From an uncultured Acidobacteriota bacterium (GTDB taxonomy: Bacteria; Acidobacteriota; Vicinamibacteria; Vicinamibacterales; 2-12-FULL-66-21): a stretch of 64,000 nt of DNA. Both the position numbers and the translations under genes were made by a program. This document shows, one piece after another, positions 10,117-62,653 of this stretch (position 1 is its first letter; every line of letters begins with the position of its first letter). Location of the stretch: assembly GCA_963836735.1 (NCBI GenBank), contig CAWIKP010000012.1:25441-89440 (forward strand), read 5' to 3'. The notes below the pieces were generated by a model. The model was not told the DNA's origin and made no database searches. It saw nothing but the letters and a program-made list of their open reading frames with translations.

Positions 10117-10199
10117 TCGGGGCTCGGGGCTCGGGGACTCGGGGGCTCGGAATTCTTCGATTCCGGTTTGCTCTTCCGAGCCCCGAGTCCCGCGCCCCG
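10117..10199. repeat. Tandem-repeat-armed palindrome (unit GGGGCTC / GAGCCCC) in the mgtE-recO gap
   Basis: Left arm 10117-10150 is tcGGGGctcGGGGctcGGGGactcGGGGGctcgg. A 25-nt spacer (aattcttcgattccggtttgctctt) follows. Right arm 10176-10199 is ccgagccccgagtcccgcgccccg. Confidence 0.85.
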
Positions 10200-11610: not shown

Positions 11611-11740
11611 GGGAATAGGTTCGGCCCGAACGTGAACTGCTCAATGTAGCACGGCACCAAGGGGGATTGTTCGAGCGGAGGGGTGTGGGGAGCGGCGGTC
11701 TCAGCATTTCTCAGTTGCGGCGGGGCCCCACCCCCGCGGC

Positions 11741-25897: not shown

Positions 25898-26052
25898 ACA
25901 ACGACAACTCCCAACTCCCAACTTCCAACTCCCAAGGGAAGTCCTTCGAAGAAACCGGGTGAAAGCCGGCCAACCCGCTGGATCGGACGGCTTTCACCCG
26001 GTTGTTCGATCGTTTCGCCTTGGGAGTTGGAAGTTGGGCGTTGGGAGTTGTG
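25898..26052. repeat. Tandem-repeat-armed palindrome (unit CAACTCC / GGAGTTG) with a perfect 16-bp inner hairpin, in the aspS-phoH gap
   Basis: Left arm 25898-25937 is acaacgacaactcccaactcccaacttccaactcccaagg. Right arm 26018-26052 is ccttgggagttggaagttgggcgttgggagttgtgt. The inner stem is aaccgggtgaaagccg (25953-25968) paired with cggctttcacccggtt (25988-26003). Its 19-nt loop contains GCTGGATC. The element ends at the aspS stop (26053). Confidence 0.88.
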
Positions 26053-29158: not shown

Positions 29159-29180
29159 CTCACGGATCTTAACAAACCGC

Positions 29181-29327
29181 TAAATCCCAAGCTCCAAGTT
29201 CCAAATCCCAAGGCACTCCCGATTCCCAAATCCCAACCAAATTCCCAAGCGACGTGGTCCTGCTATTTGGCTCGGCCCGTTGGCAGCTGGGAGTGCGTTG
29301 GGATTTGGAACTTGGAGCTTGGGATTT
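29181..29327. repeat. Tandem-repeat-armed palindrome (unit ~TCCCAAN / NTTGGGA) in the M20-hisS gap
   Basis: Left arm 29181-29250 is taaatcccaagctccaagttccaaatcccaagg...attcccaagc. Right arm ~29287-29327 is ctgggagtgcgttgggatttggaacttggagcttgggattt. The spacer is ~36 nt. Confidence 0.8.
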
Positions 29328-29370
29328 CGCGTATCCAACCGTCAGTTCTTCCTGACGGTTGGATACGCGA
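29327..29370 (-). terminator. Perfect 19-bp hairpin spanning the stop codon of the M20 gene
   Basis: tcgcgtatccaaccgtcag-ttcttc-ctgacggttggatacgcga. The M20 stop (29342-29344) and its last codons lie inside the stem. There is no U-tract. Confidence 0.5.
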
Positions 29371-37490: not shown

Positions 37491-37519
37491 GATCGGGGCG
37501 GGTCTTCAGACCGCCGATC
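37491..37519. repeat. REP-like hairpin (GGGTCTTCAGACC core) filling the convergent HD-GYP/galK gap
   Basis: The sequence is gatcggggcgggtc-ttca-gaccgccgatc. It spans the whole 31-nt gap and overlaps the galK stop (37518-37520). It is related to the hairpins at 48010-48115 and 53019-53038. Confidence 0.7.
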
Positions 37520-38695
37520 ACACCAACCGAACCCCTTCCGCCGGCCGGCTGACGATCACTCGAGGCTGCAACCCTGTCGCAGCCTGGTAGCGATCCGCGA
37601 TCGATTTGGAAAATGGCGCGACCGCCGGCAGATCGACCAGCGCGACGATGCAGCCGCCGAATCCCGCGCCGGTCAGGCGCGCGCCATGGCATCCGGGTTC
37701 GGCCATCGCCAGCGTCACCAGCAGATCGAGCTCGGCCGACGACACTTCGTAGAGATCGCGCAAGCTCGCGTGCGAGTCGAGCATGAGGCGGCCTGCCGCG
37801 GCGAGATCGTGGTCCCGAAGCGCGGCGGCGAGCCTCCGCGGCCGCGCGTTCTCTGTAATCACATGAGACGCGCGCCGAAACGCGATGTCGTCCATCCGGC
37901 TCCGGGCCAGGCTCAGAAGCGCAGCATCGACGTCACGGAGCGCGCGGACCGATGGCTCGACCTCCCGAATCGCGGCGACGGCGCGCTCGCAGGCCGCGCG
38001 GCGGTCGTTGTAGGCACTCGCCGCAAGCGTTCGTGAAACACCGCTGTAGACGATGACCACGCCAGCGTTCTCCGGCAGTGGGACGTCTTCAGTCGTCAGC
38101 GAGCGGCAATCGAGAAGCAGCGCCTGCCCCGGCCGGCCGCACGCGACCGCCATCTGATCCATGATCCCGCAGGCAACGCCAATGAACTCGTGCTCGGCCC
38201 GCTGTGCGATCTGCGCGGCCTGACGGGGATTCCAGGCCTCGCCGCTGGTTGCCGCGAGCACCCGGGCGATCGAGAGCTCGACGGCAGCCGACGAGGAGAG
38301 CCCGGCATCGGATGGGAGCGTCGATGCGAGGGCGATGTTCGTGCCTGTGACGCGCAGCCCGGCAGCCGCCATCGTTCGCGCGATCCCCACGCCGTAGCGG
38401 AACCATCCCGCCGGTTCCACCGGCGCTCGTGCCGCCTTCGAGCGCCATCTCGCGCGTCTCACCGAACTCGCGGGCATGAATCCGGAGGATCTGTTCGTCG
38501 TTTGGCGCCATAGGCGGCGGCAATGCCGTCTTCAATCGCCATCGGCAGAACGAAGCCGTCGTTGTAGTCGGTGTGCTCCCCGATCAGGTTGACCCGCCCG
38601 GGGGCGAACGCCACCCCCGTCGGTGGCGCGCCGAACTGGCGCCGGAACTCCTCGCGGGCCGCTGCGGGAGCGTCAGTGGGGCTCGGCGGAATCAT
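37518..38695 (-). pseudogene. galK: Galactokinase; two +1 frame breaks (~38500-38510, ~38415-38430)
   Basis: The N-terminal signature [22 protein letters not shown] is in ORF 38459..38695. The next segment is [25 protein letters not shown]. The rest follows in ORF 37518..38477: PVEPAGWFRYGVGIAR...LPSDAGLSSSAAVE (GHMP P-loop)...GARLTGAGFGGC. Confidence 0.9.
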
Positions 38696-38730: not shown

Positions 38731-38874
38731 TCGGGGCTCGGGGCTCGGGGCTCGGGGTTCGGGGCTCGGAAAGCCGGTGGTACCAGAGGCAACGAGGCGC
38801 TTGGATCTGCCCCCGTTGCCTCTGAAGATCACCGGCTCTCCGCGCCCCGAGTCCCGAGGCCCGAGCCCCGCCCC
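38731..38874. repeat. Tandem-repeat-armed palindrome (unit GGGGCTC) with a conserved 62-nt hairpin core, in the divergent galK gap
   Basis: Left arm 38731-38769 has five GGGG runs. Core 38774-38835 is ccggtggtaccagaggcaacg-[19-nt loop aggcgcTTGGATCtgcccc]-cgttgcctctgaagatcaccgg. Right arm 38841-38874 is the C-rich complement. The core is ~85% identical to 61377-61437. Confidence 0.9.
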
Positions 38875-38950
38875 CTCCGAGATATGATCCGTCCGACTCT
38901 TGTCACCCGGGAGGCAGACAAACATCGCGCGGACGCCGGTTTTTTCGGGC

Positions 38951-42915: not shown

Positions 42916-43100
42916 CCGCTGGTCCGCTGGTCCGCTGGTCCGCTGGTCCGCTGGTCCGCTGGACCGCTGGTCCGCTGGACCGCTGGACGGCTCGTCCGAT
43001 GGGCCGCAGGTCGACGGGGGCGTCGACAACTGGCTGACCCACCCGCGTACTCTGCGGACCCGGAGAACGGACCAGCGGACAGCGAACCAGCGAACCAGCG
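42916..43100. repeat. Tandem-repeat-armed palindrome (unit CGCTGGTC, 9 phased copies vs ~4 complementary copies) between the divergent ADOP genes
   Basis: GCTGG recurs every 8 nt from 42918 to 42982. The right arm 43069-43100 is ggaccagcggacagcgaaccagcgaaccagcg. The spacer contains nested palindromes (ccgcag...gtcgac-gggggc-gtcgac...ctgcgg). Confidence 0.88.
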
Positions 43101-43140
43101 ATTTCCAAACGAAATCTCTCCAGACCGCGTCTAACTCCCC

Positions 43141-48009: not shown

Positions 48010-48115
48010 GATGTAGGGCGGAGATCGGCCGGGTCTGAAGACCCGCCCTACATCCGCACGAGGAGCCTGCTCCACCGTCTGTAGGGCCGGGTCTTAGACC
48101 CGGCCGATTTCCGCC
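48010..48115. repeat. Inverted pair of ~37-nt REP-like units (TGTAGGGC...GGGTCTNAAGACCC) between convergent genes
   Basis: Unit 1 (48017-48053) is ggcggagatcggccgggtctgaagacccgccctaca. Unit 2 (48079-48115), read on the other strand, is ggcggaaatcggccgggtctaagacccggccctacag, ~90% identical. The TAA stop of the Gfo/Idh/MocA gene (48094-48096) is the loop of the unit-2 hairpin ggccgggtc-tta-gacccggcc. Confidence 0.8.
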
Positions 48116-51167: not shown

Positions 51168-52433
51168 TCACTGAACTCCGAACCTCCACACCGTCTTCGA
51201 TCGATAAGTGGCTCCCGGCTGCAGGATCGTGTTCGGAAACGCCGCCTGATTCGGCGAGTCCGGGAAGTGCTGAGTCTCTAGGCACAGGCCGCTGCGTTGC
51301 GGGTAGCCCACACCGCCCTTGCCCTTGACCGTGGCATCCAGGAAGTTGCCCGTGTAGAACTGCACGCCAGGCTCGGTGGTCGAGACCTCCAGCATCCTGC
51401 CGCCGACGGGCTCGACCACGCGGGCCGCCAGCTGAAGGCCGTCGCCGGCGCGATTCAGGACCCAGTTGTGGTCGTAGCCCCGGCCGAACTTGATCTGTTC
51501 AGTGGCGGCGTCGATCCGTGCCCCCACTTTCGTCGCACGCCGGAAGTCCATCGGGGTGCCTTCGACCGGCGCCAGCACACCCGTCGGGATCAGCGACTCC
51601 CCGACCGGCGTGAAACGGTCCGCGTTGATCGTCACCTCGTGATCCAGGATGCTGCCGGTGCCCTGGCCCGCCAGGTTGAAGTAGGTGTGCTGGGTCAGGT
51701 TCACCGGCGTGGCCTTGTCGGTGGTTGCCTGGTACTCGATCTCGAGCGTGTTCGCATCGGTCAGGACGTATGAGACGCGCACCTCGAGTCTGCCGGGATA
51801 GCCCTCCTCGCCATCGGGGCTGACGCGCGAGAACGCGACGCCATTCACGCCGGTAATTCGCTCGGCAGCCCACACGTACTTGTCGAAGCCCCGGACACCG
51901 CCGTGGAGGTGATTCGGGCCGTTGTTCGCCGCCAGCTGATAGGTTCTGCCATTCAGCGCAAAGCGGGCGTTGCCGATCCGGTTCCCGTAACGGCCCACCA
52001 CCGCGCCGAAATAGGGATGCTCGCCAAGGTATCCCTGGAGCGCGTCGAAGCCGAGGGCGACGTCAGCCATCACGCCCTTGCGATCCGGGACCCTGATCGA
52101 GGTGATGATCGCGCCGTAAGTCATCGCGCGAATCTCAAGGCCGCGCGCGTTGGTGAGCGTATACACCTCGACAGGCGTCCCTGCCGCGTTTCCGAATGCC
52201 TCTCGCGTCACCTGCGCCCCCCGCTCTGCCCCATTGTCCGCCTCCGCGCTGGTGCTATCGGCTACGGCGAGACCGCGCCGCAGCTGGTCGGCTGGATTCT
52301 CGCCGACCAGCGGAGGCGGGCCAAACCTGCCAAGATGGCCAAAACTGCCAAAATCTGGCGCGCTCCCGTTACCGGCAGCGCTGCCAAATGCGGCCATCGC
52401 CAGCACCGCCAGCCACGATTTCCACGTCTGCAT
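51168..52433 (-). CDS. galM: Aldose 1-epimerase (galactose mutarotase); start uncertain
   Basis: The catalytic body is EAFGNAAGTPVEVYTLTNARGLEIRAMTYGAIITSIRVPDR...NNGPNHLHGG...TQHTYFNL...ETQHFPDSPN. The ATG at 52433 gives a signal peptide (MQTWKSWLAVLAMAAFGSAAG) plus a ~55-aa linker that contains the repeat at 52269-52356. An alternative GTG at 52211 (VTREAFGN) would give a cytoplasmic enzyme and place the repeat in the leader. Confidence 0.85.
   Translation of the reverse strand: MQTWKSWLAVLAMAAFGSAAGNGSAPDFGSFGHLGRFGPPPLVGENPADQLRRGLAVADSTSAEADNGAERGAQVTREAFGNAAGTPVEVYTLTNARGLEIRAMTYGAIITSIRVPDRKGVMADVALGFDALQGYLGEHPYFGAVVGRYGNRIGNARFALNGRTYQLAANNGPNHLHGGVRGFDKYVWAAERITGVNGVAFSRVSPDGEEGYPGRLEVRVSYVLTDANTLEIEYQATTDKATPVNLTQHTYFNLAGQGTGSILDHEVTINADRFTPVGESLIPTGVLAPVEGTPMDFRRATKVGARIDAATEQIKFGRGYDHNWVLNRAGDGLQLAARVVEPVGGRMLEVSTTEPGVQFYTGNFLDATVKGKGGVGYPQRSGLCLETQHFPDSPNQAAFPNTILQPGATYRSKTVWRFGVQ
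52269..52356. repeat. Copy 1 of a ~75-nt repeat (hairpin gctggtcgg-N10-ccgaccagc plus TGCCAAGAT-type units)
   Basis: 52269-52343 is ~89% identical (7 mismatches, 1 indel) to 54810-54883 in the same orientation. The 9-bp stem is 52283-52291 / 52303-52311 and the loop contains TGGATTCTC. It is followed by gccaaacctgccaagatggccaaaactgccaaaatctgg. Confidence 0.85.
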
Positions 52434-52990: not shown

Positions 52991-53038
52991 CGGTTCGCGG
53001 GTTCGCGGTTCGCAGTTCGCCGGGTCTGAACACCCGGC
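52991..53038. repeat. Four GGTTCGC heptamers followed by a REP-like hairpin (gccgggtctgaacacccggc)
   Basis: cggttcgcgggttcgcggttcgcagttcgc (52991-53020) is followed by the stem ccgggt/acccgg around ctgaac (53019-53038). It lies just after the padR stop. Confidence 0.65.
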
Positions 53039-53115
53039 GCCACAAAGTCCTGGTCAGCAGCAACCGAGCCGGAGGCTCAGTCTTCATTCGCCGACGATCA
53101 AGAAAGACACACACC

Positions 53116-54809: not shown

Positions 54810-55068
54810 GAGACCTCGCCGTAGCTGGTCGGTGGATTCTCGCCGACCAGCGTAGGCGGGCCAACATTGCCAAGATTGCCAAATCAAATGCTGGGCACGT
54901 TCCGACGCTTCAGCAGCCAGGCACAACTCTGCTCCCTCGAGCTCGCAGTCTTCGCAGTTGGCAATCCTGGTGCGGGGTGAGTGACGCCCCGGAGTCGCCC
55001 ACGTCCGAACTGCCCCGAGCATTTGCAATCTTGGCAATTTTGGCAATCTTGGCACTTCTGGCAATGCT
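54810..55068. repeat. Composite element in the OFOR/ROK gap: copy 2 of the 75-nt repeat plus a palindrome with 9-nt ATTGCCAAG / CTTGGCAAT arms
   Basis: 54810-54883 matches 52269-52343; its hairpin is 54824-54832 / 54843-54851. Left arm 54862-54893 is ccaacattgccaagattgccaaatcaaatgc. Right arm 55019-55068 is gcatttgcaatcttggcaattttggcaatcttggcacttctggcaatgc. The spacer is ~125 nt. The element ends at the OFOR-beta stop (55069). Confidence 0.85.
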
Positions 55069-57920: not shown

Positions 57921-58053
57921 AAGTCGAAACAGCTTCCAGCTCCCAGCTTCCAGCTTCCAGCGGCTCGGGAGTGACATCGCCCGGCCGCTGACGACACCGA
58001 GAATCCGGAGCTCTGAGCTGGCAACTGGAAGCTGGAAGCTGGCAACTTTCGAC
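57921..58053. repeat. Tandem-repeat-armed palindrome (unit CAGCTTC / GAAGCTG) between the GltD-like gene and OFOR-alpha
   Basis: Left arm 57921-57961 is aagtcgaaacagcttccagctcccagcttccagcttccagc. Right arm 58017-58053 is gctggcaactggaagctggaagctggcaactttcgac. The 55-nt spacer contains ctcgggagtgacatcgcccgg. Confidence 0.88.
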
Positions 58054-58063
58054 GTCAGTTCCC

Positions 58064-59869
58064 TCACACCGCCATCAACGGAATCACCGTGGCCCCGGCA
58101 TACGGAATCTGGAGCGCGAACTTCCGCATGTCCCATGCGTAGGTCGGGCAGCGCTCCGCGCACAGACCGCAGTGCAGGCAGATGTTCTCGTCCTTGGCCA
58201 TCACCCGGCCGGTCTGCTTGAGCGCGCTGGAGGCGTAGAGCGGCTGATCGAGATTGAGCGCCGGCGCCGAGGAACTGCGTCCGCATCTCCGGCTCGGGCA
58301 GGCTCGGGGTAATGGTGAGGCAGTCCACCGGACAGATATCGACGCAGGCATCGCACTCGATGCAGAGCGATTCGGTGAAGTGGGTCTGCACGTCGCAGTT
58401 CAGGCACCGCTCCACTTCCGCCGTGGTCTGCTCCAGCGAGAAGCCCTTTTCCACTTCCGTGGTCATGCTCTGGAAGCGGATGCGCAGATCCACGTGCTTC
58501 ATCTTCTGGCGCGGAGCGTGGTCGTAGTTGTTGCTGTACGCCCACTGATGCAGCCCCATCTTGGTGCTCGTGAGCGTCTGGCCCTGCGGCGGCCGCTCGG
58601 TGACCGGAATGCCCTGGCAGTAGTTGTGGATGGAGATGGCCGCCTGATGGCCGTGCTCCACCGCCCAGATGATGTTCGCGGGACCGAACGCGGCGTCGCC
58701 GCCGAAGAAGACTCCGGGGCGCGTGGACATGAACGTGGTCTTGTCGACGACCGGCATGTCCCACTTCCCGAACTCGAGCCCGATGTTGCGCTCGATGAAC
58801 GGAAACGCGTTGTCCTGCCCGATGGCGAGCACCACCGTGTCGCACGGCAGAATCTCGCGGCCGATGACCTCCTGCTTGAGGCCCTGTGTCGGTCTCGACC
58901 GACTGGAACTTGTCGAACTCCATCCCGGTCAGCTTGCCGTTCTCGATGATGAAGCGGACCGGCTGGAGGTTCTCGATGATGTCCACGCCTTCTTCTTCGG
59001 CGTCCTCGAGCTCCCAGGGCGACGCCTTGAAGTACTTGCGGGTCTTGCGGGCGATGACCTTGACCGTCGGTCGCGCCGAGCCGCTTCGCCGAGCGGCAGC
59101 AATCCATCGCGGTATTGCCGACACCGATAATCAGCACGCGCTTGCCGACCGAGTCGACGTGACCGAAATGGATCGACTCGAGCCACTCGATGCCGATGAA
59201 GATCTGGTCGGTCTCGTGACGGCCGGGAATCTCGAGCTCCTTGCCTTTCGGCGCGCCGCTGCCGACGAACACCGCATCGTATTCGCCGGAATCGAGCAGG
59301 GCGCCGAGGCTGTTCACGGGCGAGTCGTAGCGGACGTCCACGCCCATGTCCGTGATGTAGGCGATCTCTTCGTCCAGCACTTCTTCCGGCAGCCGGAATG
59401 CGGGGATGTTGATGCGCATCAGCCCGCCCGGACGCGGCAGCTTCTCGAAGATCGTCACCGAGTAGCCGAGCGGCATCAGGTCGTTGGCCACGGTCAGCGA
59501 CGCCGGCCCGGCGCCGATCAGCGCGACTTTCTTGCCGTTCTTCTCGTCGGGCGCCTTCGGCAGCAGGTGCCGGACTTCGCCGCGATGGTCCGCGGCGACT
59601 CGCTTCAAGCGGCAGATGGCGACCGGTTTCCCGTCGATGCGGCCACGCCGGCAGGCGGGCTCGCACGGACGGTCGCAGGTCCGGCCGAGAATGCCGGGAA
59701 ACACGTTCGACTCGCGATTCACCATGTAAGCCTCGGTGAACCGCCCCTGCGCGATCAGTCGGATGTACTCGGGAACGTTGGTGTGGGCGGGACACGCCCA
59801 CTGACAGTCAACGACGCGATGGTAGTAGTCCGGATGCCCGACGTTGGTAGGCTGCATGCAAGAGGCCAT
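58064..59869 (-). pseudogene. GltD-like NAD(P)H-dependent oxidoreductase fused to a C-terminal 2x[4Fe-4S] ferredoxin domain; three +1 frame breaks (~59066-59078, ~58878-58890, ~58255-58270)
   Basis: The N-terminus has Cys clusters (DCQWACPAHTNVPEYI...TCDRPCEPACRRG) and a Rossmann motif (KKVALIGAGPASLTVANDL). The next segments are PTVKVIARKTRKYFKASPWELEDAEEEGV... and ...VVLAIGQDNAF...FFGGDAAFGP. The ferredoxin motifs are CLNCDVQ...CIECDACVDICP and CLHCGLCAERCP. Confidence 0.82.
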
Positions 59870-59913: not shown

Positions 59914-60034
59914 GGCTCGGGGCTCGGGGCTCGGGGCTCGGGGAGCTCGGGGTAATCAGAGGCAACGAGCAAATCGGCAGGGCTTCGACCCCGCCATTCG
60001 ACTTTCAGCTCGAATCCCGAGCCCCGAGCCCCGG
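59914..60034. repeat. Tandem-repeat-armed palindrome (unit GGGGCTC) with a partial copy of the conserved core
   Basis: Left arm 59914-59952 has five GGGG runs. Right arm 60016-60034 is cccgagccccgagccccgg. The spacer starts taatCAGAGGCAACGAGc; that 13-mer (59957-59969) is identical to 38784-38796 and 61386-61398. Confidence 0.85.
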
Positions 60035-60041
60035 ACAAGCG

Positions 60042-61302
60042 TCAGACCGCAATCGCCGGCGCCGTCAGCGCGGCGAGCACTTCCTTGTAGAGATACTTCG
60101 CGCCCTCCACGCCGTTCAGCGGCCCTTCCTCGTACTCGAGCGCGAAGGTGCCCTTGAAGCCGCCGGCGAGCATGATGCGCACCGATCGCTGCACGTCGTT
60201 CCTGTCGCCCCAGCGGTCCCAGTACTTGGCGTGCACGTTGGTGTGCGGCGTACGGCGCGAGCGCCTTGAGGCCGTGGAAGAGCATGTACTCGTGCTCCCA
60301 GTTGCAGAAGTCGGGAGACGCCTCGCAGTACGGGTGGTTCACCTCGTCGAGGATGATGCGGATGTTCTGCGGATCGGCCGCCAGGCCCCAGTGGTTCTCG
60401 ATGGTGACCTTGATGCCGAGGTTGCCGCCGTAGTCCGCCATCTCCTTGTACGACTCGATCGCGGCCTTCAGCATCGGGACGATGTCGACGTTGCGGGGGT
60501 AGCCGTCGCCGGGACCGCGCGGGATGGCGTTCGGCCGGATGCCCGGGCCGAGCGCGGACGTGGAGTTCATGCGCATCGACTTCACGCCGAGCACCGCGCA
60601 GCCCTCGAGCCACTTCTTGCGCGATCTCGACACCAGCCTTGCGCGGCGTCCTCGTCCGGTCCGGCGAGATTGGTCGGCGCGTTGTTCGAGATGTGCTGGC
60701 ACTTGACGCCGGTCTTCGCCATGACGCCGGCCAGGCGATCGAGCCACTTGCGCGCCGGAGGGCGTCGACGGATCGAACGTGCGCCCGGCGAACATGCTGT
60801 CGTCGGTGACGTCCCCGAACAGCCCCGAGAACAGGTCCATGTGCGTCACGCCCGGGAACGTGTCCTTCGTGAACTGCGGGAAGTCCAGCATCGTGATCTC
60901 GCCGTACTTCGCCTTCATCTGTTCCGGCGACCAGCCGCCGTTGGCTGGAGAACGCTGAACGATCGGCGCGGCGTCACCGCCCCTGCCCGCTGCCGGCGCG
61001 CGGCGCCTGGGTCGCGCCGGCCTGCGCTCCTGGTGCTGGCGGGGCTGCCGCCGGCGCCTCCCGGCGCCGCGCCGCGGCCCACCGCCGCCGCCCCGCCCCG
61101 CGCCCCCGCGCGCTGCTTGAAAATCGATCGAATCGGCCACGTGCACGACGCAAGGCGCATCGAGCCGATCCTTGTCGGTCTTGAACTGCGCCAGCGCCCG
61201 CTCGGCCGGCGTCAGCGCCACACCCGCCGCCGTGAGCCCCGCACCCGCGACCCGGATGAAATTGCGTCGATCAATACCCTTGTCGGTCTGCTGTTCTTCC
61301 AT
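60042..61302 (-). pseudogene. Tat-exported sugar phosphate isomerase/epimerase (xylose isomerase-like TIM barrel); about four +1 frame breaks (~60750-60760, two near 60625-60650, ~60238-60246)
   Basis: The twin-arginine signal is MEEQQTDKGIDRRNFIRVAGAGLTAAGVAL. The body reads ...FPGVTHMDLFSGLFGD... / KWLDRLAGVMAKTGVKCQHISNNAP / KKWLEGCAVLGVKSMRMNS...IKVTIENHWGL...PDFCNWEHE / NVHAKYWDRWGD...FALEYEEGP...*. A Gly/Arg-rich linker (60950-61130) has an uncertain frame. Confidence 0.75.
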
Positions 61303-61345
61303 CTCGTTGCCCTCGAGCGTGCATCATATCGCGTCGCGTCGGCTA

Positions 61346-61474
61346 CGGGGCTCGGGGCTCGGGCCGGGCCGGCGGACCGGTGTACCAGAGGCAACGAGCC
61401 GCTGGGATCTGCCACCGTTGCCATCTGAGTACACCGGCTCTGCCGAGCCCCGAGCCCCGAGCCCCAGCCCCGAG
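61346..61474. repeat. Tandem-repeat-armed palindrome (unit GGGGCTC) with a conserved 61-nt hairpin core, in the divergent TIM-barrel/pilT gap
   Basis: The left arm is 61346-61372. Core 61377-61437 is ccggtgtaccagaggcaacg-[19-nt loop agccgcTGGGATCtgccac]-cgttgccatctgagtacaccgg. Right arm 61443-61474 is ccgagccccgagccccgagccccagccccgag. Confidence 0.9.
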
Positions 61475-61541
61475 TCTGGTACTCTGACTTCCATGACCAC
61501 TGGCGCACAGAATCCTCCGCCGCCCGCCGACGGGCGACACC

Positions 61542-62653
61542 GTGGCCCCTGCGCCGGCGATTCCGACACAGGCGTTGATCACGGCGATGCTCGATTCCGG
61601 CAAGGGCATCAGCGATCTCGTGTTTTCTCCGGGACGCCCTCCGCAGGTCGAGAAACAGGGGCAGCTGACGCCGGTCGCCTTCCGTCGCTGTCGACGCTTC
61701 GGCCGGAAGACACGGCGAGAATTGCCGGCGAGCTCCTGCGGGGCAACGAAACAGCGCTTCGCACGCTCAAGGAACAGGGGGCGTGCGACTTGTCGTACTC
61801 GCTGCCGGAGCGCGGCCGGTTCCGCGTGAACATCTTCAAGCAGCGCGGCTCGTTTGCCATCATCATGCGGGTCATCGCGGGGAAGATTCCGACGCTCGCC
61901 GAGCTGCAGCTGCCGCCCGTCCTGGCGGAGATGGCGACGCTGAAAAACGGCATCGTCCTGGTGACCGGGCCGACCGGATCGGGGAAATCCTCCACGCTGG
62001 CGGCGATCATCGATCTCATCAACGACACACGCGCCGAGCACATCCTCACCATCGAGGATCCGATCGAGTTCCTCCACTACCACAAGAAGGCCACGATCCA
62101 TCAGCGCGAGCTCCACAGCGATACGCCGACGTTCGCGGCCGCGCTGAAGGCTGCCCTTCGTCAGGCGCCGAAAGTGATCCTGGTCGGCGAGATGCGCGAT
62201 CGGGAGACCATCGAAATCGCGCTGACCGCCGCAGAGACCGGGCACCTGGTGTTCTCGACCCTGCACACGATCGACGCCTCGAAGACAGTGGACCGGATCA
62301 TCGGCACCTTCGACGCCGGCGATCAGCAGGCCGTGCGGACGCGCCTGGCCAATTCATTCCGCTACATCGTGTCGCAGCGTCTCGTGCCGACGAAAGCCGG
62401 CGGCCGGGTGGCTGTGCTGGAGATCCTGAAGGCGACGATGCGGACGCGCGAGTACCTCGAGCGTGGCGAGGCCGAGGGAAAGACGCTGCTCGATGCCATG
62501 CGCGACGGCGAGCTCGATGGCATGCAGCACTTCGATGGTGAGCTGGAGAAGCTGCTGCGGGCCGACGCCATCAGCCGGGCGACCGCCCTCCTCTACGCCA
62601 CCAACCAGGGCAACCTGCAGCTGCAGATTGCCGACATTCCGTCCGACGCCTGA
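61542..62653 (+). pseudogene. pilT: Type IV pilus retraction ATPase PilT; -1 frame break near 61678-61684; start uncertain
   Basis: The GTG 61542 frame gives MAPAPAIPTQALITAMLDSGKGISDLVFSPGRPPQVEKQGQLTPVAF. It continues in the frame of ORF 61172..62653: PSLSTLRPEDTARIAG...GPTGSGKSSTLAA (Walker A)...ILVGEMRD...TGHLVFSTLHT. The ATG at 61493 is in the second frame and would need an extra compensating shift. Confidence 0.88.

Follow-up and report, generated by a model that had tools for sequence, protein, structure and literature searches.

A hairpin core shared by dispersed, tandem-armed intergenic palindromes of Acidobacteriota, probably a DNA-level repeat

What kind of genetic object is a nested hairpin that recurs, in nearly the same sequence, in separate intergenic gaps of one bacterial genome? 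The question was raised by an initial annotation, made from the letters alone, of a stretch of 64 000 nt (hereafter the window) of contig CAWIKP010000012.1 from an uncultured member of the Acidobacteriota (assembly GCA_963836735.1), in which a 62-nt hairpin core was noticed at 38774-38835 and again at 61377-61437. It was proposed to be a protein-binding or regulatory module, a small RNA (sRNA), or the portion that is conserved in a non-autonomous mobile element. We find that the core is a member of a real multi-copy family. On the best-supported reading the repeat acts as selfish or recombining DNA and not as the gene of a structured RNA. We put the probability at about 0.55 that the core forms the centre of a palindromic repeat that is dispersed and non-coding, a DNA-level element rather than an RNA gene, and similar to the hairpin-forming doublets of repetitive extragenic palindromes (REPs), known as REPINs, or to transposable elements of the miniature inverted-repeat type (MITEs). 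Of the identities first proposed, the mobile non-autonomous element fits, because the core occupies about 10 unrelated intergenic sites, has no Rfam match and is patchily present at orthologous sites, but a structured RNA or sRNA is not supported.

Both core sequences were recovered letter for letter, and their likeness, put at about 85% by eye, came to 87.3% by global alignment (55 identical columns of 63, with three 1-nt gaps). The nested fold that had been drawn for them was reproduced in both copies: an outer stem, then an inner stem of 11 bp (CAGAGGCAACG/CGTTGCC(A)TCTG) closing a 19-nt loop, formed both as RNA (-38.9 and -35.9 kcal/mol; z -6.8 and -5.4) and as DNA (-20.3 and -20.5 kcal/mol; z -6.1 and -5.2), and 0 of 200 shuffles folded as well. 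Each core forms the apex of a longer hairpin (130-145 nt) whose arms consist of GGGGCTC heptamers, and the full armed hairpins of elements 1 and 2 gave RNA folds of -123.7 and -102.5 kcal/mol (z -12.7 and -9.1). Dimers of GGGGCTC number 13 in the window, against 0.13 expected. A complete element is a near-perfect inverted repeat of 130-160 bp that runs from G-rich tandem units of 7-8 nt through a linker, the outer stem and the inner stem AGAGGCAAC to the 19-nt loop (GCCGCTKGGATYTGCC), and then through GTTGCCTCT, the outer stem and the linker to the complementary tandem units. The conserved part, including the paired linker, measures about 70-85 nt.

A covariance model built from nine copies recognized core copy 1 with 82.2 bits on the forward strand (E 5e-22) and 39.6 on the reverse, and core copy 2 with 61.4 bits (E 1e-15). 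A filter-free scan with this model revealed no further core in the whole window, where everything else scored 20 bits or less. There are exactly three occurrences in the window of the 13-mer CAGAGGCAACGAG (38784, 59957 and 61386), and the one at 59957 does open the spacer of a third GGGGCTC-armed hairpin, as had been pointed out. What is left of the core in that element, which the covariance model misses, is its first 13-18 nt (CAGAGGCAACGAGC, 59957-59970); the remaining spacer is unrelated. To the three armed hairpins first described we add a fourth, which lacks the core. The coordinates of these features are collected in Table 1.

Table 1. Core copies, armed hairpins and arms in the window
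Feature	Coordinates	Strand	Remarks
Core copy 1	38774..38835	+	Outer stem, 11-bp inner stem, 19-nt loop; with linker, covariance-model match 38768-38837
Core copy 2	61377..61437	+	Covariance-model match 61370-61440; 3' half of inner stem with one bulged A
Truncated-core GGGGCTC-armed hairpin	59914..60033	+	Between TIM-barrel stop and gltD-like start
GGGGCTC-armed hairpin without core	10117..10199		25-nt spacer; between recO and mgtE
Left arm, element 1	38731..38769		(GGGGCTC/GGGGTTC) x5.6 heptamers; Tandem Repeats Finder (TRF) period 7; pairs with 38840-38875 in the fold
Right arm, element 1	38840..38875		GAGCCCC-type x4.4; complement of left arm
Left arm, element 2	61341..61376		GGGGCTC x3, then degenerate G-rich linker
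Right arm, element 2	61443..61474		(GAGCCCC) x4.7; ends 19 nt before the pilT ATG at 61493

The family extends well past the window. A pattern scan of metagenomes, the covariance model and syntenic contigs reached through galK homologues together yielded 13 additional copies, the family occupying about 10 distinct intergenic sites, all from Vicinamibacteria-like Acidobacteriota. In Joint Genome Institute (JGI) metagenomes the pattern CAGAGGCAACGAGN{12,22}CGTTGCC matched 19 loci, of which 8 have the core between inverted arms of tandem repeats (L020, L025 and L031, which are one locus in three samples, and L022, L030, L032, L034 and L035). The covariance model contributed copies that the pattern could not select, namely L035:13417, L032:2875 and L034:2958, together with L039:9331, L041:9851 and L041:5475 in syntenic contigs, which were likewise beyond its reach. 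The loop had been left free in the pattern, yet it is conserved in all the copies found. All 15 copies are intergenic, and their sampled density is about 1 per 20-30 kb, in loci chosen for holding a copy.

Other collections gave no core. The pattern had 17 single matches across 185,579 species genomes (a collection without the window's genome). These are scattered in unrelated taxa, none has GGGGCTC arms, and we judged them to be chance. None of 28 pattern matches in IMG/VR viral contigs passed the covariance model, no core match was found in PLSDB plasmids by blastn, and the model detected no copy in 43.5 kb from the relatives L018, L019, L070 and L071. A scan of the whole window against Rfam at gathering thresholds gave 0 matches, and in E-value mode Rfam returned generic microRNA (miRNA)-precursor hairpins only, well short of their thresholds (57.7 bits against 168 in one case).

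The arms of these elements show a second layer of order. Every one of the 15 core copies is flanked by inverted arrays of 7-8-nt units, which fall into four classes: class A (GGGGCTC) in the two window elements (w38k and w61k), L041a and L022, with the variant GGGGCTG in L040 and L071; class B (GCGGGTTC) in L030, L032a/b, L034b and L035a/b; class C (GGGATCC/GGGGTCC) in L020 and L034a; and class D (GGGGAGCT) in L041b. The left and right arms are of equal class in 13/13 complete elements, even where orthologous sites differ in class, and the mean duplex energy of an arm is -62 kcal/mol with its own partner versus -45 kcal/mol with arms of other elements. Unit number also varies within a species or population: the galK-site arms have 5 units in the window versus 3 in the same-species contig L039, the locus seen in three samples has 4 units in L020 versus 2 in L031, and a (CCGCTGGT) array at a MacB site has about 12 units in the window (42916-43101) versus about 6 in L039:4740-5110. 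Arms of this kind may evolve via replication slippage, and their complementarity may be maintained by intrastrand template switching, in other words by quasi-palindrome correction, an established mutational mechanism in Escherichia coli.

If the core were instead a structured cis-acting RNA of a 5' untranslated region (5' UTR) or an sRNA, acting for example as a stabilizer, a processing site or an attenuator, its stems would be the place to look. We compared the 15-copy alignment with the 24-bp helix, using as a null 500 shuffles of the 3' partners. Paired cells made up 80.4%, as against 78.8 +/- 1.0% in the shuffles, a value reached in 29/500 of them, and changes on both sides affected 5 pairs and 8 cells, as against 4.4 and 5.4. 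Pairing is at the level that common ancestry alone would give, with no significant covariation in this alignment, 8 of whose 15 copies had been selected with the inner stem fixed by the pattern. Of the checks that the initial annotation had suggested, the search for further copies succeeded, so that the finding is not refuted by the condition set there; no Rfam family was matched, and the stems yielded no compensatory covariation.

Other features of the copies point the same way. About 20% of core stem cells are unpaired, and in the five copies not selected by the pattern stem and loop are about equally conserved (0.80-0.90 match to consensus). Under per-element gapped alignment the mismatches of whole hairpins comprised 28 G·T, 32 A·C and 66 others (P = 0.70), which indicates no wobble tolerance or bias on either strand; a hint of wobble bias in the A5 alignment (G·U 11 versus A·C 24) disappeared under this treatment. 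Likeness is 80-83% between core copies that come from different sites and different genomes, and only 75% within the orthologous pair w38k-L041a, which argues for a star-like population of repeats around a master, not for a vertically conserved RNA gene. Both scans of the surroundings found no sigma-70 promoter or intrinsic-terminator consensus near the elements, and neither window copy has the position of an intrinsic terminator, a GC-rich hairpin with a T-run downstream of a gene, since both lie between gene starts.

An RNA would be consistent with the very stable predicted folds, with the proximity of the elements to start codons, which makes it probable that at least part of each is transcribed, and with the report that most G-rich heptamer repeats of Xanthomonas are transcribed (PMC4692102). 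Against this stand the absent covariation and G·U bias, the sub-threshold, generic character of the Rfam hits, the missing promoter and terminator consensus and the fact that copies are oriented independently of transcription (one co-directional site holds the core antisense, and convergent genes flank the core at two others). The evidence does not support a structured RNA or an sRNA, and we regard both readings as very unlikely. The initial annotation had also used the 1-nt indels between the two full copies as an argument against a peptide; that argument is weak, because the genes of the window and of contig L039 are equally frameshifted and single-base indels may be assembly noise.

Comparison of orthologous sites shows how the elements behave over time. 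Contig L032 is syntenic with the window at 59.8-61.5 kb, and the flanks align base for base. Its element at L032:1398-1468 is the orthologue of w61k, with the same core and orientation and with arms of class B that include some class A units. The element at L032:2875-2945 is the orthologue of the partial copy in the window and carries a full core between class B arms, so that the window copy at 59914-60033 is a truncated core; the third copy first described reflects true homology rather than a chance match of 13 nt.

At the pilT site, where the window has class A arms and the core, L071 (pilT 95% identical to that of the window at the nucleotide level) has GGGGCTG arms and 20 visible spacer bases that are not core-like, although the contig ends there. 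The two relatives whose pilT is 88% identical differ from each other: L070 has GCGGTCC arms around an unrelated cargo of about 150 nt, and L032 has class B arms and the core. L018 and L019 (82-84%) have neither core nor tandem arms, L018 showing a plain 12-bp hairpin. The pilT site thus has the core in the window and L032 but not in L018, L019 or L070.

Other sites tell a similar story. At the galK site the core is retained in L039, L040 and L041. The divergent MacB site holds a decayed core with GGGGAGCT (class D) arms in L041 (5390-5645), whereas the window and L039 have a (CCGCTGGT)n hairpin there, with a spacer that differs from the decayed core of L041. Beside hisS, the flanks of window 29178-29331 and L039:18840-19030 are 92-95% identical and the hairpins entirely different; L041:19440-19680 has the window's arm type with a 5-nt loop only, and the window hairpin has an insert of about 85 nt at its apex, bounded by GCACTCCC/GGGAGTGC. 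A resemblance between the L039 cargo at the hisS site and the 3' half of the core was rejected as not significant (E 0.35-0.43). The differing occupants at the pilT, MacB and hisS sites indicate that such sites persistently hold some hairpin whose identity turns over quickly. Where the core persists at orthologous sites, its orientation is preserved.

Alternatively, core and arms might be separate entities, the armed hairpins being resident and hypervariable and the core of about 70 nt being a tiny mobile palindrome that inserts at their apex. Arms do occur without the core (window 10117-10199, L030:2600-2806 and L018:8349-8621), one core is found in four arm classes, the apex insert at the hisS site of the window contrasts with the 5-nt loop of L041, and different cargo lies between similar arms at orthologous sites. 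However, we found no orthologous pair in which the arms are identical and the core is precisely present on one side and missing on the other. The palindrome continues through the conserved linker (RRAG-CCGG...CCGG-CTYY) with no sharp boundary, and the arms that bear a core all vary a single G-rich theme, as would fit a common descent of core and arms. We consider a separate, independently mobile core decidedly unlikely.

An unlikely, more far-reaching reading is a new type of mobile or self-renewing DNA, in which palindromic modules home to the apex of existing intergenic hairpins and the arms are rebuilt in concert. Such modules would have no terminal repeats or target duplications, would form hypervariable 'hairpin cassettes' at fixed sites beside housekeeping genes, and might be driven by a hairpin-recognizing enzyme acting on single-stranded DNA. 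Homing of this kind would explain why a completely different element occupies the corresponding site of a genome that is about 95% identical, why one core is combined with four arm classes, and why the arms match.

We favour the DNA-level palindromic repeat. Its copies, at unrelated intergenic sites, go back to a common palindromic master and have since decayed without compensating changes, and insertion or replacement recurs at the same intergenic hairpin sites, with a leaning to divergent gene pairs. The copies could be seeded or re-homogenized by a trans-acting enzyme that recognizes hairpins, or by gene conversion between copies, and any effect on the expression of flanking genes would be a side effect.

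Several observations weigh against the repeat that we favour. At the inspected elements there is no target-site duplication and no sharp element end is visible; no direct repeat is common to the flanks of the four elements in the window (the left flanks end in GTC, TAC, CTA and GTC, and the right flanks begin with CCC, AGT, GAC and CTT). No transposase, RAYT (REP-associated tyrosine transposase) or integrase was found by Pfam among about 37 flanking and window proteins, most of the roughly 250 kb of loci being unscanned. Repeated occupancy of the same site in the same orientation could mean a host function, and so could the location of 6-7 of the 10 sites between divergent genes. The choice of 8/15 copies by a pattern with a fixed inner stem would hide inner-stem covariation, if any exists. 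The contigs include noisy long-read assemblies, and the density of about 1 per 20-30 kb is drawn from loci picked because they bear a copy.

The genomic positions of the copies also bear on a host function. As first described, both full copies of the window lie in divergent gaps, copy 1 between galK and a DUF5658-like membrane protein gene and copy 2 between an AP_endonuc_2 TIM-barrel gene and pilT. Overall, 6-7 of about 10 sites lie between divergent genes, two between convergent genes and one between co-directional genes, where the core is antisense; the divergent sites exceed the one quarter or so expected (rough binomial P of about 0.02, by our own estimate). The element ends lie 10-36 nt from start codons, and the elements must therefore lie in promoter or 5'-UTR DNA. 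The neighbours are unrelated housekeeping and metabolic genes without a shared theme: galK/DUF5658, TIM barrel/pilT, gltD-like/TIM barrel, a MacB pair, peptidase/aldo-keto reductase, gdhA/MacB, hydrolase/uxaC, uxaC/aldo-keto reductase, MacB/iron-containing alcohol dehydrogenase (Fe-ADH) and a MutS-like gene.

These positions would suit a host-selected DNA module in which the half-sites AGAGGCAAC-N21-GTTGCCTCT, or an extruded cruciform with its conserved loop, are recognized within shared promoter regions by a nucleoid-associated protein or a global regulator, with the arms tuning spacing or ease of extrusion. Such a module would resemble the bacterial interspersed mosaic element (BIME) of E. 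coli, also known as the repetitive IHF-binding palindromic element (RIP), in which inverted REPs flank a conserved central motif bound by integration host factor (IHF). Like BIMEs, our elements have inverted outer repeats around a conserved centre and lie in intergenic DNA within or between operons; unlike them, they have outer parts made of tandem repeats rather than REPs, their sequences are unrelated, and no IHF consensus is apparent by eye.

The predominance of divergent sites and the closeness to start codons speak for a binding module, as do the inner-stem half-sites, which are the best conserved block (0.86 even in copies not pattern-selected), the orientation kept at orthologous sites and the continued occupation of sites by some hairpin across relatives. 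Set against these are the lack of a common functional theme among flanking genes, the copies that also lie between convergent and co-directional genes, the swapping of the core for unrelated cargo at the same site in close relatives, and the free decay of the core, with about 20% of stem cells unpaired. Neither candidate protein site convinced us by eye: for sigma-54, GG-N10-GC is off by one, and the IHF match (WATCAANNNNTTR) is unconvincing. On balance, a host-selected binding module appears improbable.

How, then, does the DNA-level repeat compare with other known palindromes? The attC sites of integrons have R''/R' boxes of the form RYYYAAC...GTTRRRY and stand in cassette arrays next to an integrase. 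We rejected this identity for the core, whose inner stem GGCAAC...GTTGCC shares only AAC/GTT with these boxes and whose copies stand singly among housekeeping genes. The nearest relatives in behaviour are the REPs and REPINs mobilized with RAYTs in Pseudomonas and enterobacteria (PMC3116915, PMC3337134), which are likewise short, non-coding extragenic palindromes that form long hairpins and, as is probable for the core too, are present in many copies. As with these repeats, the core copies resemble a population centred on a master sequence, are retained at orthologous sites and decay without compensation. A REP is defined as an imperfect palindrome of 20-40 nt with a GTAG or CGTC tetranucleotide at one end (PMC3733652), whereas the core is a palindrome of 62-70 nt whose foot, RRAG followed by CCGGTGGTAC, lacks such a tag. 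It also differs from a REPIN in being one long palindrome, not two inverted REPs, and in having outer arms of tandem 7-8-nt units of variable class, and no RAYT gene is linked to the family among the flanking genes scanned.

The likeness to MITEs such as Correia/NEMIS, ERIC and RU-1 (PMC3184786) lies in a length of 100-200 bp, a non-coding intergenic nature, inverted ends and long hairpins, and in presence or absence among relatives at orthologous sites, as seen here at the pilT site. Our elements depart from MITEs in having no target-site duplication at the four window elements and no known parent insertion sequence (IS), and in having no fixed terminal inverted repeats, because their ends are variable simple-sequence arrays.

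The arms by themselves recall the paired inverted (GGGAATC)n heptamers of Xanthomonas, which are intergenic, usually have about 4 units and number 70-75 pairs per genome (Rehm et al. 2015, PMC4692102). Those heptamers often form convergent pairs capable of stem-loops or cruciforms, vary in length between species with their type preserved, and have no link to IS elements (PMC4692102). Convergent intergenic pairs of at least two tandem G-rich heptamers are present in our elements too, but this likeness is confined to the arms: no conserved central hairpin is described for the Xanthomonas pairs (PMC4692102), which belong to a different phylum and have a single unit type, as opposed to at least four arm classes around the same core. 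Heptamer arrays have also been reported in Geobacter metallireducens (PMC2700814) and in Beggiatoaceae (PMC4679880).

Acidobacteriota are abundant in soil and seldom cultured, and we found no literature on small dispersed repeats in this phylum. The core family joins REP- or MITE-like palindromes with over-represented heptamer simple-sequence repeats, which are usually treated apart. Its most striking property is a conserved centre flanked by arms whose class changes jointly on both sides, in a setting where even 95%-identical genomes can carry different hairpins. The family therefore offers a natural experiment on long palindromes, in which orthologous sites differ in the unit class of both arms at once and yet keep a recognizable centre, and this paired switching shows that the complementarity of long palindromes is kept up in vivo. 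At a practical level, the elements break assemblies and confuse gene callers, their proximity to housekeeping start codons means that expression may change, and the variation in arm length could serve as a strain marker in soil metagenomes.

The window has a G+C content of 66.5% and carries the housekeeping genes mutL, corA, ppdK, glyQS, recO, mgtE, era, phoH, aspS, hisS, galK and pilT; the closest named homologues of its proteins come from metagenome-assembled genomes (MAGs) of Acidobacteria and Vicinamibacterales. Apparent frameshifts affect galK (37518-38695), pilT (61493-62653), the TIM-barrel gene (60042-61302) and the gltD-like gene (58499-59845). The European Nucleotide Archive (ENA) contig L039, 93-95% identical to the window, is equally fragmented by frameshifts throughout, and the splitting of housekeeping genes probably reflects long-read indel noise in a noisy assembly rather than pseudogenes. 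Open reading frames also extend through the elements. Just left of the element at the pilT site, a short block, GCATCATAT/AATGATAT (TATGAT on the minus strand), is conserved in all relatives (window 61320-61332, L018:9905-9917, L019:1848-1858 and, in reverse, L032 at about 1515-1527). If this block is the -10 box of the TIM-barrel gene, as it may be, the left arm of the element would lie at or just upstream of the -35 region of that promoter.

The window holds at least five more tandem-armed hairpins with other units and spacers (1759-2010, 25905-26050, 29178-29331, 42916-43101 and 57930-58047), whose 7-8-nt arm units are GGGTTCA, CAACTCC, CCAAGTT-type, CCGCTGGT and CAGCTTC. Most of them take up all or nearly all of the space between co-directional housekeeping genes, as at mutL-corA and phoH-aspS. 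In the CAACTCC-armed hairpin, the spacer (25936-26019) itself forms a nested 16-bp hairpin with a 19-nt loop that includes CCGCTGGATC, similar to the core loop CCGCTGGGATC. We nonetheless rejected a second core family at 25905-26050: the covariance model gave 17 bits on both strands, as for a generic hairpin, the 10-mer CCGCTGGATC is unique in the window, and no other copies of the hairpin were found. Nor is GCCGCT(G) an apex motif common to all tandem-armed hairpins, since the 15 non-core spacers show no enrichment for it (P 0.2-0.35). An all-against-all BLAST of the non-core spacers revealed no other cargo families except small palindromes of the GGGTCTGA..ACCC type.

Further small repeats accompany these hairpins in the window and its relatives. 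A small family based on GGCCGGGTCTKARACCCGGCC-type palindromes occurs in the window at 48017-48115, 53017-53085 and 11701-11738, at L018:8386-8596 and several times in L019. Tandem arrays of a 26-nt unit containing GGGGTCTGACCCC lie in L018 (11271-11379) and L019 (3176-3460). Within the window, a 51-nt direct repeat is present at 52293-52343 and 54833-54883, 2.5 kb apart and 90% identical, and beside it stand nonamer arrays (GCCAAAACT, GCCAACATT and GCAATCTTG) at 52320-52353, 54860-54882 and 55025-55065. Similar nonamers (CATTGCCAA) form the arms of a hairpin at L032:7807-7946.

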